Below, piece by piece: positions 17,607 to 25,844 of a stretch of DNA of 64,000 nt (its first letter is position 1; the number at the start of each line of letters is the position of its first letter). Source of the stretch: Isurus oxyrinchus (lineage: Eukaryota); assembly GCA_026770705.1 (NCBI GenBank), contig JANJGN010000025.1:28954001-29018000 (forward strand), written 5' to 3'. The position numbers were made by a program, and so were the translations under genes. Under the pieces are notes generated by a model. That model saw only the letters and a list, made by a program, of their open reading frames with translations. It was not told the origin of the DNA and did not search any database.

Positions 17607-17936
17607 TGTTGTATTTTCACAGCTGAGCATTATGTTGTGTTATGTGTTCGCTCCAGCTGTGGTGTCTCAATGATGAGATCTTGAGACCTGTATGTTTAAA
17701 CATGAACCATTTATTGTTAATCTTTAACTATTTACAGATCCCAGTTTACTATCATGCATGGTGTTGCTGCCTCTATGCAGGCTGCTTCCAGAGCGTTCTC
17801 TCTAGACTGTTCTGAGCCTATTACCATGTGACTCTATGTATCATACCGTGGGGCGTGCCATTCTCCAGTCCCACATTAACCCTTGCACTGCTAAGCACCT
17901 TTACATTACAATGGCATTCAGGCACATAATACAGCA
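17607..17936 (-). repeat. 3' LTR
   Basis: Shares long blocks with 22091-22389, e.g. atgaaccatttattgttaatctttaactat and agcacctttacattacaatggcat; AATAAA on the minus strand. Confidence 0.9.
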
Positions 17937-18529
17937 ACCCCTTTCTTCTCCAAAGGAAACTTTCCTCCCTTCCAATGGAGTATTCCAGTACAATTTTGAC
18001 TTTCTATCCCTTCACCCCCACTGTAAATCTCAGACATTACAAATTATGACGGCCTTGAGGCTTGATGGTTCTTCCACATCTCAGTTTGTCATGTTTGGTG
18101 GAATGGCAGTAGTACTCTGTGTTTCTAGTACTTGGTTATGTCCATTTGATTCGCTTTTTGCACTCCGAGTTGCATTTCTCTTTTTTAGCAACCTGTCTGC
18201 TTTTTTCGGACACTGTGGGTTTGTCCTGTTCCTTCCACAAGGAATGTGCACTCCGTTCATTCCTAGAGTGGACTGGAATTTTTTTTTTTCAATGTGTCTG
18301 CCATGTTCTTACTGGATGTATATGTTTCACAAATGGAATCTTCATTTCCACGTGTTTCACAGTTTCAGCCAAACACTTGTTTGCTGTTTTATTTTTTAAA
18401 CCGTTTTGCAAACTTATGAATCTCATCATTCAGCTCAATGGTTCTCATTATGTTGCAGACGCCCAGTGCTCTTTCTTCTTCCGGTTTCTTATACTTCAGT
18501 GTCGGATTCACATTTCCTGATCTTATTTC

Positions 18530-19171
18530 TGTCTTTTCTTTCTCTGACTGTAACTTAGGAAGTTCTACGGCTTTTTCTTTTAACGCCTCTTCATTTTCAT
18601 TCAACTGCTTCTTCAGCTTGTCAGTCGGTTTCTTGCAGCTCTCGGCTTCACCCTAGAATATGGAACGTTCCTGAGTCTTCTCTGCCAGCTGGTTCTTCAG
18701 TTTGCTCAGAGTGATGTTAAATTCATTTTCCTTAACTTTGTAATTATCCAGAGGTACAGATTTTTGTCCTAAGGGATTCTTATAACATATGAAGATTCTT
18801 CAGCAGGTTTCCTTTTCTTTGCAAGACTCACTTGCTTCATCTTGAACTTTCCTGTAATTCGGTAGAGTCTCCTTGAGTTTCTTTTGTTGTGCCTCCATTC
18901 TACCGTTTAAGACAATCTTCACTTCTTCGTGTTGCTGAATGGGTATGCATTCCTTTTGCATTTGATCTTGAAGGTTAGTCAGCAGTTCTTATAATTGTTT
19001 ATTTTCTTGTTGACCTCTTAGCAACTCAATCTGGGCTTCAGTGCATCATTTCATTGCTACTGATAATTCCAACATAGCTTTTTCTGAAGTAATGTTCAAC
19101 GTCCTTTTTAGCTCCTCGTGTTTTTACATGGCTACACATTGATTCTTCAAGGAGTTTTTCAGGGTTGCAAC
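18530..19171 (-). pseudogene. UACA-like coiled-coil fragment, distal part (stops and frameshifts)
   Basis: Manual translation: LKNSLKNQCVAM*KHEELKRTLN..QMQKECIPIQQHEE..TLPNYRKVQDE..VPLDNYKVKENEFNITLSKLKNQLAEKTQ..DKLKKQL. Collinear with human UACA as recalled (NQYVPVKTHEEVKMTLN..ILANYRKGQEE..FKATEKELKDQLSEQTQ..DKLKKEI). Confidence 0.75.
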
Positions 19172-20590
19172 TTTTTTTTATTATTCATTCATGAGATGCG
19201 GGCGTTGCTGACTAGGCCAGCATTTATTGCCTAACACTAATTGTCCTTGAGAAGGTGGTAGTGAGCTGCCCTCTTGAATCGCTGCAGTCCATGTGGTGTA
19301 GGCGCATCTACAGAGTTCCAGGATTTTGACCCAGTTGAAGCAAAGGAATGGCGATATTATTTCCAAGTCATGTTGGTGGGTGTCTCGGAAGGGAAATTCC
19401 AGCTGGTGGTGTTCCCATGTGTCTGCTGCCCTTGTCCTTCTAGGTCATAGCAGTTGTGGGTTTGGAAGGTGATGTTTTAGGAGCTTTGTTGACTTTCTGC
19501 AGTGTGTCTTGTAGATGGTACACATTGCTGCCATTGTGCAATGGTGGTGGAGGCAGTGAATGTTTGTGGATGGGGTGCCAATCAAGCAGGCGGCTTAGAC
19601 CTGAATGGTGTCAAGCTTCTTGAGTGTTGTTAGAGCTGCATTCATCCAGGCAAATGGCAGTGTAGATGGTGGACAGGCTTTGGGGAGTCAGGAGGCAAGT
19701 TATTTACTGCAGGATTCCCAGCCGCTGACTTGGTCTTGTAGCCACAGTATTTATATGGCTAGTCCAGTTCAGTTTCTGGTCAATGGTAACTGCCAGGATG
19801 TTGTTAGTGGGGGATTCAGCAATGGTAATACCATTGAATGTCAAGGGGCAATGGTTAGATTCTCTCTTGTTGGAGATGGTCATTGCCTGACACTTGTATG
19901 GTGTGAATATTACTTGCCACTTGTCAGCCCAAGCCAGGATATTGTCCACATCTTGCTGCATTTGGACATGGACTGCTTCAGTATCAGAGTAGCTGCGAAT
20001 GGAGCTGAAAATTGCACAAGCATCAGTGAACATCCTCACTTCTGACCTTATGATGGTCATTGATAACGCAGCTGAAGATGGTTGGGCCTAGGACACTACC
20101 CTGATGTACGCCTCTGGTGATGTCCTGGATTGTGATGATTGATCTCTAACAACCACAACCATCTTCATTTATGATAAGTATGACTCAAACCAGTGGAGAG
20201 TTTTCTCCATGATTCCCATTGGCTCCAGTTTTGCTGGGGCTGCTTGAAGCCCCACACAGTCAAATGCTGCCTTGATGTCAAGGGCAGTTCTCTCACCTTA
20301 CCTCTGGATTTCAGCTGTTTCATCCATGTTTGAACCAAGGCTGTAATGAGGTCAGGAACTGAGTGGCCCTAGCGGAACCCAAACTGGGCGTCAGTGAGCA
20401 GGTTATTGCTAAGCAAGTGCCGCTTGATAGCACTACTGATGACCCCTTCCGGCACTTTTCTGATGATTTAGAGTAGAGCATTTGGCTGGGTTGGATTTGT
20501 CCTGCTTTTTGTGTACAGAACATACCTGGGCAATTTTCCACATTTCTGGATAGATGCCATGTTATAGTTCTATCAGAACAGCTTGGCTAG
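19172..20590 (-). mobile_element. 5'-truncated CR1/L2-group LINE inserted into the LTR element
   Basis: RT fragments LDIKAAFD, IRSEVRMFTD, WADKWQV and the family 3' tail with an A-rich end at 19172-19180; homologous to 29590-31500. Confidence 0.9.
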
Positions 20591-20900
20591 GGACAGGGGC
20601 CTTTTCTGCCTCCTGCTTTGCCTGGCTGTGCATCTGGTTGAGGTTTCCCAGCTCCTGCTTTGATTTGCCAGCTGTGGAATCGAGGGTCATTATTTCCTTC
20701 TGGTACCTTGGTCTCGTCTCTGAAATTTGATTGTTCAGATCTCAAACAGCTTAGTTCATTGAAGACTTCAGTTGACATGCATTTTCAGGGGCATACACTC
20801 AGCTTGAATCTTGCGCCTCAAATCTTCCTGTTCAGCTGTGATGTGAACGTTTCCTGTAGAACAGCTTCATTTACTTTTTACACATTTGCTTCTTTTGAGT
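20591..20900 (-). pseudogene. UACA-like coiled-coil fragment, proximal part
   Basis: Manual translation: RRKIQAECMPLK...YQKEIMTLDSTAGKSKQELGNLNQMHSQAKQEAEK, matching the UACA segment (HEKEIIALKSNIVELKKQLSEL) that directly precedes the distal part. Confidence 0.6.
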
Positions 20901-21730
20901 TACCTCAGATAGCCATCTGCTCACCCCATACAGCCATCTGCCTCCCTCGCTCTGGGTTCTTTTGGCTCCCTCTCTCTCTGGGGTTTTCTGCTGCCCCCAT
21001 GCTGGAGTCTTTTACTGCCTCGCTCTGGGGTCTTTTGTTTCCCTTTCACTGCGGTCTCTGCTAATTTTCTGTCCAGCGACTTTGTAAGAGACTTGTTGCT
21101 GGGGAGATTTTTGGTTCCTCAACTTTGAAAAAAAAAACTTTGGAGGTGTTGTATTTTGCAACAAATAGATCAATCCAGGTACAGAATGTTCCAGCTATTC
21201 TTACTGCACTGCACCGTGCTTGAGGCTTGGCTATCACTTACTTAGGGACAAAATCTGCTCTCCACATTTTAAAATATGCATGTCTGTAGCCATTTCCTTT
21301 TCGTTTAGAGCGCTTTTAAAACTAAGATTTCAGCATTGCCAAAAATGCTTGGGAGGGTTGTACTCACGGTCTGTGTTTTAACTCTGAGGAACTTCTAAAA
21401 CAGCAGCAATTTGTTCCTCAGTACAAGAGGCTAGGGACCCAATTGGAAAAGGTTCCCTTTCCCTTAAACTCTGCAGGCTTTTTACTTTTTTAAACTGTAC
21501 TCTGCAGGTTTCTCTCTTCATTCTGCCAGCCAATTTTTATTTAACTTTTTTTAACTTCGGCCCAGCCACCATGTGTTATGGTGCGGCTATTGACTCCCTC
21601 TGTTGCTCTCTTTCAGCTGCCCTCTGGATGCTGAGCCCTAGGACTGCCACTTACTCTAAAATGTAAGCACAGCTTCTTTTTGGTATTTTTACTCACCATC
21701 TCATATACTGCCCAGGTCCTTTGACTCTGT

Positions 21731-21895: not shown

Positions 21896-22090
21896 TCTTG
21901 CATGGACTTCCACTCACTCTGGTGGATTCCTCAACTTTTCAGTCTGTAGTGAAGCTTCTTCAACTGTTTCTTCTTAGGCACACATCTCCCTGGTTTGGCT
22001 TCAGCTGCTTTTAGTTTCTCATACCTTGGGATACTGTTCTGGGTTCATTATTTAAAATGTCACCTTTCATATCATCGCTACTGCTCACCA

Positions 22091-22389
22091 TGTTGCTTTA
22101 TCACTGCTGATACTGTATTATTGTGCACAGTGATCCCTCAATGCTGAGGTCTTGAGGCTTGGATGTTTAAATATGAACCATTTATTGTTAATCTTTAACT
22201 ATTACAGAGCCCAGGCTACTGTCATGCATGCAGGCTGCTTCCAGAGTATTCTCTCGACTGTTCTGTGAGTCTATTACCATGTGACTCTTTGCATCGTACC
22301 ATATGCAGTGCTAGTCTCCAGTCCCATGTTGACCCTTGCTCTGCTGAGCACCTTTACATTACAATGGCATACAGGCACATACTACAAAA
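22091..22389 (-). repeat. 5' LTR
   Basis: Direct repeat of 17607-17936; adjacent PBS resembles the tRNA-iMet complement TGGTAGCAGAGGATG with indels. Confidence 0.9.
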
Positions 22390-22744
22390 GTAGGAAGCAA
22401 TAATTTGAAAGACAAAAACAAAGACAATGAGCTGAATTTTCTGCTCTGAAGTCTAAGTTCGTTGGCAGGTATGGAAATGCAAGTGATTCCCACAGGGGGA
22501 TGGGATGGCTGAATACGTGTGAGCTGGTGCTGTTCAGCACTTATGCACTTGTGCGGAACATGGCAAATCTCATGGTGGGTGCCATAGTTAAAGGGCACCC
22601 AGACAGCCTGCCTCTCTTCCGCCCCTACCCTCCAACCCACCTGCCCTGTCACCTTTGCCTGCCTCCCAGGTCCAGCCTCTGCTCCACCCTTCCACCCTAT
22701 CCCCCATCCAGCCTTTGCACAGCATGTGCTACCGGTGCCCTTTT

Positions 22745-24420: not shown

Positions 24421-24747
24421 AGGAAATAAGCCCAAATGAGAAGTTAGTAATATCATGATATAAGATTAGACACTGGCCCTTTAAACCCCTTTTTACTTTT
24501 CCTCTCTCATGGGCACTCTCCCTTTCACTATTCTGGCCAACAGCACTGGTTCAAGGATTGAACATAGGACCTTCCTTCTTAAAACTCAACTATGCACCAA
24601 ATAAGCCACTGATACATTAAAGAAGTGGTTTTAATATCACCTCTTCATTGTTTTGTTGCAAACAATACTTATAAGACTAACCAGTACTTTGTTGCTTTGC
24701 AATTTGGTTTCAGATTATTTGAAGTGGATTATGTTTGAGTATCCCTG

Positions 24748-25366
24748 AAATAAGAGACATGCTGTCAAAGCTTTTCATTTTGCACTCATCAGGATACCTC
24801 TCAAGAAATTACAAACTGCAACGGAGGAACAACAATTTATACTGCACTAGAATAGAATGCTGATTAGTTGGCAACCGAACTCCGGTTGAGGCATAGGGAT
24901 GGAGAATGCAGCATGGAACAGTTAACTGCCCAGCTTTGTTCAAACTCAAACTGGGTTGGTCGACTCTGATTGGTCAAAGAATTTCCCTAGGGCATGAACC
25001 AGGGAATGACAGTTCCATAAACTTTTGTTTGATTGAAAAAGGCACAAAGTGTGTACATGTCCTTTCTATCTGCAAAGGACATAGCTTGTGTGTGAATATA
25101 TGTGACTTCTAGCATGTGTAAGTGAGCTACACTGCAAGCCCGACTGACAACTTTAAATTGTTTTTCAGTGTAATTCTTAATTCTTACTGTTCCATGCTGC
25201 ATTCTCCATGACAATGCCTCTACCAATCAGAGTTCATTTTCCAACCAATCAGCACTCTCTTCTCATGCAGTATAAATTATTATTCCCCCATTGTTGTTGG
25301 TGATTTCTTGTGAGATATTGTGATGAGTGCAAGACAAAAAGCTTTGATTGCATGTCTCTTTTTTCA
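24748..25366 (-). mobile_element. Penelope-like element remnant: GIY-YIG C-terminus between inverted ~180-bp terminal repeats
   Basis: 24748-24922 and 25186-25366 are inverted copies; the internal minus frame QFKVVSRACSVAHLHMLEVTYIHTQ.. resembles Penelope endonuclease C-termini. Confidence 0.75.
24762..24797 (-). ncRNA. Minimal type I hammerhead ribozyme motif
   Basis: Minus strand gtatc-CTGATGA-gtgcaaaat-GAAA-agcttt-gacag, with palindromic stem III AAAGCTTT; weak stems I and II. Confidence 0.5.
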
Positions 25367-25844
25367 ACAATACTTAAGTTCTGCACTACTAAGCGACTAC
25401 TTGGGTTATGTTTCTTCCTATACTGAAATTTCTGTTGTGACCTTATTTCTTGATGGAGTTGATGTACAAAAGCCAAATTTCAAATATGAAAAATTAGGGA
25501 AAAAAATTCAGATTCAGGAGTAACTCATGTGTTACTTATGGTTAAGTATACATCTTGGAACACTTGTTTCAATCCAAATGGTACTGTGTTAATCTGTCTC
25601 CGAATTAATGTTACAACATTTGAAAGGCTATTCTGTTTTATAAAATACATTTCTACATAGGGTCATATTTACTGGCAATTCATTGTCAATCAGTGTAAAA
25701 CCAAGTTCTCAACATGCAAACTAGGTTGCCAGATTATCAGAAAGAAGCATTTTTTCTGCTTTATGTTTATCTTCAATTTGCAACCAAACTGGTGCACATA
25801 ATAACTAACCAGGCATCCTAGTAATGAATTATAAAAATATAGCA

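Follow-up and report, generated by a model that had tools for sequence, protein, structure and literature searches.

The window analysed here, a 64,000-nucleotide stretch of the Isurus oxyrinchus genome, carries on its minus strand what is, as read from its features, an old and decayed non-autonomous derivative of a Gypsy-type LTR element. Specifically, the features that place it with Ty3/Gypsy are a direct LTR pair, a polypurine tract (PPT) and gag and pol remnants homologous to integrase-bearing elements. In the 5′ to 3′ direction of the element, the parts are as follows:

22091..22390, minus strand: 5′ LTR of about 300 nt, ending in CA, its first bases decayed; 81% identical to the 3′ LTR over 270 columns
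22073..22090, minus strand: PBS-like site, beginning with TGG immediately past the 5′ LTR
20923..21076, minus strand: decayed start of the open reading frame (ORF); a non-ATG codon at the gag start codon position of sister copies, gag core gone
20602..20922, minus strand: first two UACA pieces, both from the giant exon (nt 849-1078 and nt 1167-1274, with a 102-nt deletion between them)
19178..20598, minus strand: later LINE insertion with a 5′-truncated RT and the 3′ end, interrupting the UACA segment
18536..19177, minus strand: third and fourth UACA pieces (nt 1282-1850 and nt 2292-2373 of the same exon, with a 450-nt deletion between them)
18438..18535, minus strand: remnant of a coiled-coil segment without a source match
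18326..18437, minus strand: pieces of TPR mRNA, clear for exon 12 and weak here for exon 10
18136..18138, minus strand: subfamily-wide stop and end of the chimeric frame (29/36 copies)
18037..18325, minus strand: probably the 3′ remnant of pol/integrase; the terminal motif occupies 18078-18037
17938..17951, minus strand: PPT, read from the sequence
17633..17936, minus strand: 3′ LTR with TG...CA ends

A TGG start right behind the 5′ LTR is seen in the window and in sister copies, no target-site duplication is recognisable in the window or in nine other records (the copies are about 20% decayed), and RT is absent from the element family. The LINE of about 1.4 kb at 20598-19178, presumably of CR1/L2 type, has no counterpart at the same place in the other 29 loci examined. 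The stretch at 20923..21076, past the lost gag core, consists of short tandem repeats and part of a segment without a source match. Further damage to the window copy includes five stops in UACA pieces 3 and 4, two 1-nt indels there that compensate each other, the lack of about 120 nt near 18554 that most sister copies carry, and a private frameshift near 18396 in the TPR part. Elsewhere in the window, positions 24735-25377 hold a pair of 154-nt inverted repeats, 79% complementary and 335 nt apart.

The first-pass annotation had recognised a UACA-like segment upstream of the terminal motif, and this identification is borne out by the protein and DNA matches. When 19171-18392 was translated with X at the stops, 48 of 53 protein matches were named UACA and the other five had no name; the segment, which resumes past the LINE and extends to 20922, is 73–78% identical in DNA to the giant exon of host UACA (C25:4.88 Mb), and element copies as a group are about 72–88% identical to it. 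A second host gene follows, as 18393-18326 matches host TPR (79% identity, E 7e-12), this being all of TPR that is kept clearly in the window; the TPR portion downstream of UACA is also found as Pfam PF25481 (E 2.6e-7). Neither the TPR piece nor the stretch of UACA past the LINE had been noticed in the first-pass annotation. The host TPR gene lies at C16:74.25-74.27 Mb, and two parental genes, on C25 and C16, contribute to one frame. In the elements TPR exons 3-10 and 12 are joined intron-free on the same strand as gag, and therefore a spliced mRNA was captured, corresponding approximately to residues 95-440 of the host N-terminal rod and reduced to about 40 codons in the short one of the two subfamilies, referred to here as short and long.

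The order in the family is thus a gag start, a source-less segment, UACA exon pieces, a source-less coiled coil and spliced TPR exons. The two source-less segments, behind gag and between UACA and TPR, have no match in the protein search or the PDB, nor in the UACA and TPR proteins and loci, 120 kb at an ANKRD26-like locus or 80 kb at UACA; against Atlas they matched mixed coiled-coil clusters only. Microhomology of 3–13 nt is present at the internal deletions. A database protein from Lacerta agilis (P0067, ‘TPR-like’, 390 aa) also carries an N-terminal piece of TPR behind an unrelated N-terminus, which looks gag-like to us, and is perhaps an independent capture.

The gag N-terminus at the 5′ end of the elements comprises about 95 codons, and UACA lies behind it in 54 of 60 gag-selected loci, a few of which overlap. 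It is homologous to the gag of other LTR elements in the genome (E to 1e-18), including the gag-pol elements L247-L263, which we take to be Mag-type and with which the family also shares a similar pol end before the 3′ LTR. In L250, for example, a gag match (E 3e-13) is accompanied by Integrase_H2C2 (E 1.4e-8) and the same kind of terminal motif. Across these gag-related elements a Pfam match was obtained in just 1 of 17 scanned frames. Unlike the UACA/TPR family, L247-L263 retain gag-pol remnants; their identity to it is about 40%, so none of them is the direct helper. Likewise, the best 30 rve loci show neither similarity to the family nor the terminal motif, and 20 gag-related elements of the genome are only distantly similar. 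Among L245-L264 there are many gag-related elements with LTR pairs just 2.2–4.5 kb apart, suggesting more internally deleted families. The predicted fold of the gag piece has three helices (pLDDT 64), with no Foldseek match, a best Z of 7.2 that is uninformative, and nothing in Pfam. The gag core anchor is present in 14 of 30 short copies and missing in 16. At least nine of the copies without the anchor have, like the window copy, lost the core. Their first codons mostly remain, and in one of them the start and UACA share a frame; in the others private indels hide how the two are phased. With the core missing from 16 of 30, gag-mediated co-assembly was evidently not required in every lineage.

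A DNA search of the 4.98-Gb genome returned 3,893 first-look candidates, 40 of them scored, and a search with the gag piece returned 7,069; both figures are candidates rather than copy numbers. LTR pairs are 78–86% identical in 10 short records and 67–83% in 23 long records; short and long copies differ by 22%, and copies within each group by 17–19%. None of 122 locus records (some of them duplicates) holds an intact ORF, the longest K/E/Q-rich open stretch being 305 codons. Pieces of the family also occur inside gene models of Scyliorhinus torazame and Cetorhinus maximus, which we take to belong to different shark orders; shark gene models sitting on decayed copies (P0055, P0057, P0065 and P0066) include the N-terminus of a Cetorhinus CLCA1-like model. 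Individual loci depart from the common plan. Five (L043, L044, L060, L208 and L212) have reordered UACA pieces, with exon nt 2330-2403 first, and longer TPR stretches, and are possibly older or separately shuffled. In the very short L090 (G000:C20:58732228-58735512), where a UACA/TPR match is absent, the gag piece and the first source-less segment are joined straight to the 3′ remnant. L005 (G000:C12:30870721-30874648) contains between TPR and tail a coding stretch, presumably histone H2B-like by its translation. We found no published account of a UACA/TPR element family in the literature searched; it may be catalogued in Repbase or Dfam.

When the copies are aligned, a single chimeric frame begins at the gag ATG and takes in UACA and TPR, although no copy among those read is intact. 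In the long subfamily the gag ATG is present in 26 of 34 copies and is separated from UACA by 699 majority-occupied columns, a multiple of three, over which the frame has two partial stops, the other two frames having 16 and 23 shared ones. From UACA to TPR, 537 columns contain one partial stop in frame and 23 and 15 in the other frames (21 copies). Short copies that have the gag anchor retain the ATG in 9 of 14 and show no shared stops, against 19 in each of the other two frames. In 26 of 50 single copies gag and UACA are in phase. It is the column counts that carry the case for a chimeric frame, because no phase predominates when single copies are read end to end (9, 15 and 11 in the short subfamily), and in the long subfamily the phases are scrambled too (11, 7 and 8). 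In each subfamily the frame ends at a stop of its own, only about 165–185 nt ahead of the PPT.

It is at this 3′ end that our reading departs from the first-pass annotation, which had proposed that the coiled coil continues into the C-terminal tail of an integrase in a single ORF ending at 18037. The minus strand does read KLRCGRTIKPQGRHNL* with its stop at 18039-18037, as described, and this stop lies about 85 nt before the purine tract at 17951-17938, close to the claimed 90 bp. The resemblance of the motif to a pol end also holds, as several gag-related LTR elements in this genome finish pol in a similar motif just before the 3′ LTR, one of them being the integrase-bearing L250. The coiled coil and the tail are not continuous: in the window the UACA frame holds five stops and ends at 18391-18389, and the motif is in a different frame, behind stops at 18291 and 18138. 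Nor is the break private to this copy. The stop at 18138-18136, 32 codons before that of the motif, is found in 29 of 36 short-subfamily copies (the alignment holds 37; 39 were cut and two with large insertions left out) and in 20 of 22 in another alignment. Two further sites have partial stops (9/32 and 13/35), which we read as CpG decay. Long copies have a sense codon at the position of the short-subfamily stop and a stop of their own further on; in their tail alignment (25 of 38 anchored copies, 12 lacking a tail match and one being too long) 20 of 24 have a stop in the TPR frame, and the motif terminates a +1 frame without stops over about 110 codons. The last 35–55 codons of long copies match the ends of pol in other elements, with E as low as 4e-6, and from the open +1 frame we infer a pol origin for the remainder of 18037..18325 as well. 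Because private indels scramble the per-copy phases, we rely on shared stops and column counts, and by these the tail is a presumptive pol remnant next to the PPT, outside the chimeric frame. Stops of this kind, shared and lying ahead of the motif, are what the first-pass annotation had itself named as speaking against a fusion.

The pattern of deletions and substitutions shared among copies speaks to how this frame persisted. All 12 of the common internal deletions tested are multiples of three (0.0014 under a null matched for microhomology length); among private large deletions 4 of 18 are in frame, one of them a 21-nt event. These 12 come from 15 shared clusters, comprising 11 real in-frame deletions, one artefact and three off-frame clusters on junctions already counted, with that 21-nt event, seen at two loci, as the twelfth. 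The artefact, an apparent shared deletion at UACA nt 237 that reflects a paralogous repeat, was excluded from the 12. On re-measurement one deletion is exactly 450 nt in 58 of 72 copies and another exactly 96 nt in 22 of 29; the three off-frame clusters, which lie on two junctions (a length of 458 nt in place of 450, for instance, in 4 of the 72), are counted against selection. Furthermore, after removal of CpG-like sites, the substitutions linked among copies include 73 amino-acid changes where 92.7 are expected (z −4.25), give an omega-like value of 0.43 for transitions and 0.50 for transversions, and introduce no stops where 8.6 are expected. For the neutral control, singletons were dropped as transversion-biased and weighted low-frequency changes were used instead.

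This signal is uneven. In 71 copies with one common deletion the amino-acid deficit persists in UACA (55 vs 70, z −3.45), and TPR in the same 71 has none (38 vs 40, z −0.61). We also count against selection that stops return at looser linkage (6 vs 8.7, and 11 vs 6.8 in long copies). The stem of the short subfamily appears near neutral, with 26 N to 10 S and an even spread over codon positions (10, 15 and 11), and the linked changes show no clear shift towards conservative replacements (p 0.11). The lack of any intact ORF in the 122 records and the missing gag core of many short copies weigh on the same side. Some long copies were chosen by protein searches, which favour in-frame copies, and host mRNA captured anew on several occasions could produce part of the same signal. 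Taken at this strength, the sequences point to a likely element-selected chimeric coiled-coil ORF. We are fairly confident that selection on active source copies kept the frame; that the protein itself, beyond mere translation, was the target is a view to which we incline with considerably less assurance. Hence the accessory ORF proposed by the first-pass annotation survives in one part and fails in the other: a maintained frame rather than passive cargo fits the gag-to-UACA-to-TPR frame, the frame-keeping deletions and the stop-free, amino-acid-depleted linked changes, and the fusion to an integrase tail does not hold.

The reading that we prefer, by a modest preference, is that of a non-autonomous Gypsy-type element in which in-frame UACA and TPR pieces replaced pol, and whose likely translated coiled coil would have aided the copying of its own RNA by a helper. 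Capture would have occurred by template switching onto co-packaged mRNAs, as the spliced TPR exons suggest and by the route set out in PMC5131818. Translation from the gag start nearly to the 3′ end would have been a requirement of active copies. On balance they would also have relied on its product acting for their own RNA; summed segment lengths make this rod roughly 600–850 residues long. Acting in cis, such a rod might oligomerise and tie its own RNA to helper particles, which is a guess among several. A broader version, that an LTR lineage of sharks lost every enzyme of its own and, across more than one shark order, assembled from rods of several host genes a protein that it went on trimming, selected for the transposon's sake as a helper-particle tether or as a decoy for TPR, the nuclear-basket protein that retains unspliced RNA, is one we advance tentatively, as rather less than an even prospect.

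The main rival to a selected protein is avoidance of decay. Long 3′ UTRs trigger nonsense-mediated decay, and the frame may have been kept so that ribosomes travel to within a short distance of the 3′ LTR and spare the RNA this fate; the protein would then be junk, and coiled-coil mRNAs would be suitable because they tolerate deletion and recombine in register. The arrival of both subfamilies at the same short distance from the PPT by different stops is what one would expect on this account, as are the loss of the gag core with retention of the ATG and the shrinking of TPR to about 40 codons without amino-acid constraint. It does not predict an omega near 0.45 in the UACA part, or three separate sources that are all helical and K/E-rich, and we consider it unlikely, though a serious contender. 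It is less probable still that the captured DNA was passive cargo, its frames preserved without selection because of microhomology bias and the brief stay of the sequence in active copies. Words that recur within these coding sequences are 45–92% in frame depending on their length, and long microhomologies 73–92% anyway, which would lend this account some force, as would the near-neutral short-subfamily stem; the matched null, the missing linked stops and the cross-gene junctions, which are in frame too, argue the other way, and the divergence between and within the two groups indicates that active lineages had time to diverge.

A third possibility, which we regard as improbable to a greater degree again, is that the captured TPR rod acted as a decoy, pairing with host TPR so that unspliced element RNA is held less tightly in the nucleus. 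More unspliced Gag/Pol-CTE RNA is exported when TPR is depleted and, per a supplementary legend, the N-terminal region is needed (PMC3258255), and it is from this N-terminal rod that the captured part derives; against it, TPR is the most trimmed part and shows no amino-acid constraint, and a benefit in trans would be shared with competitors. Finally, the single ORF joining coiled coil to integrase tail retains next to no credibility against the shared stops of both subfamilies and the +1 frame of the long one, even with the final 14 motif codons of the short subfamily in register with UACA by column count (791 majority columns) and individual long copies reading through by way of private indels.

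It is informative to compare the preferred reading, a selected coiled-coil protein of a non-autonomous element, with known systems. The closest known case is maize Bs1, an LTR element with pieces of several unlinked host genes in one chimeric ORF, reported as transcribed and translated (PMC13317346, PMC5131818). The shark element likewise joins pieces of unlinked host genes in a putative chimeric ORF, and differs in being an animal element with thousands of candidate copies and relatives in the gene models of two other shark genera, in drawing on helical rods, in its repeated frame-keeping deletions among active lineages, and in having only dead copies among those read. The LTR-mediated retrocopies of Tan et al. 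(2016; PMC5131818) are similar in that internal ORFs are replaced by partial, sense-strand spliced mRNA, with multi-gene chimeras and further retroposition, as spliced sense host mRNA from two parental genes lies in frame in the shark element. However, those described there are young or few in copy number and constraint was tested on single inserted copies, whereas the shark signal lies in changes shared among mobile lineages. In Drosophila telomeric transposable elements, captured nxf2, piwi and aub fragments are linked to higher copy number (PMC13534243); these are non-LTR elements with fragments of 140–235 bp that act via piRNAs and need no frame, in contrast to the more than 1 kb kept in frame here. 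What appears to be new is the scale, the coiled-coil sources and the selection signal on mobile lineages.

With thousands of fragments that resemble UACA or TPR, the family can be a source of error in shark gene models, the Cetorhinus CLCA1-like model being one example. Non-autonomous LTR elements are usually taken as non-coding and captured host DNA as their cargo, while retroviruses capture accessory genes, a habit that the shark case parallels. With so large a fossil record of copies, selection acting on the mobile lineage can be measured separately from post-insertion decay. The outcome speaks for a multi-gene ORF that was maintained, which bears on whether gene capture pays for a transposon. 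If the rod-protein reading is true, sharks would harbour a non-autonomous element that invented an accessory protein and was amplified to thousands of copies.
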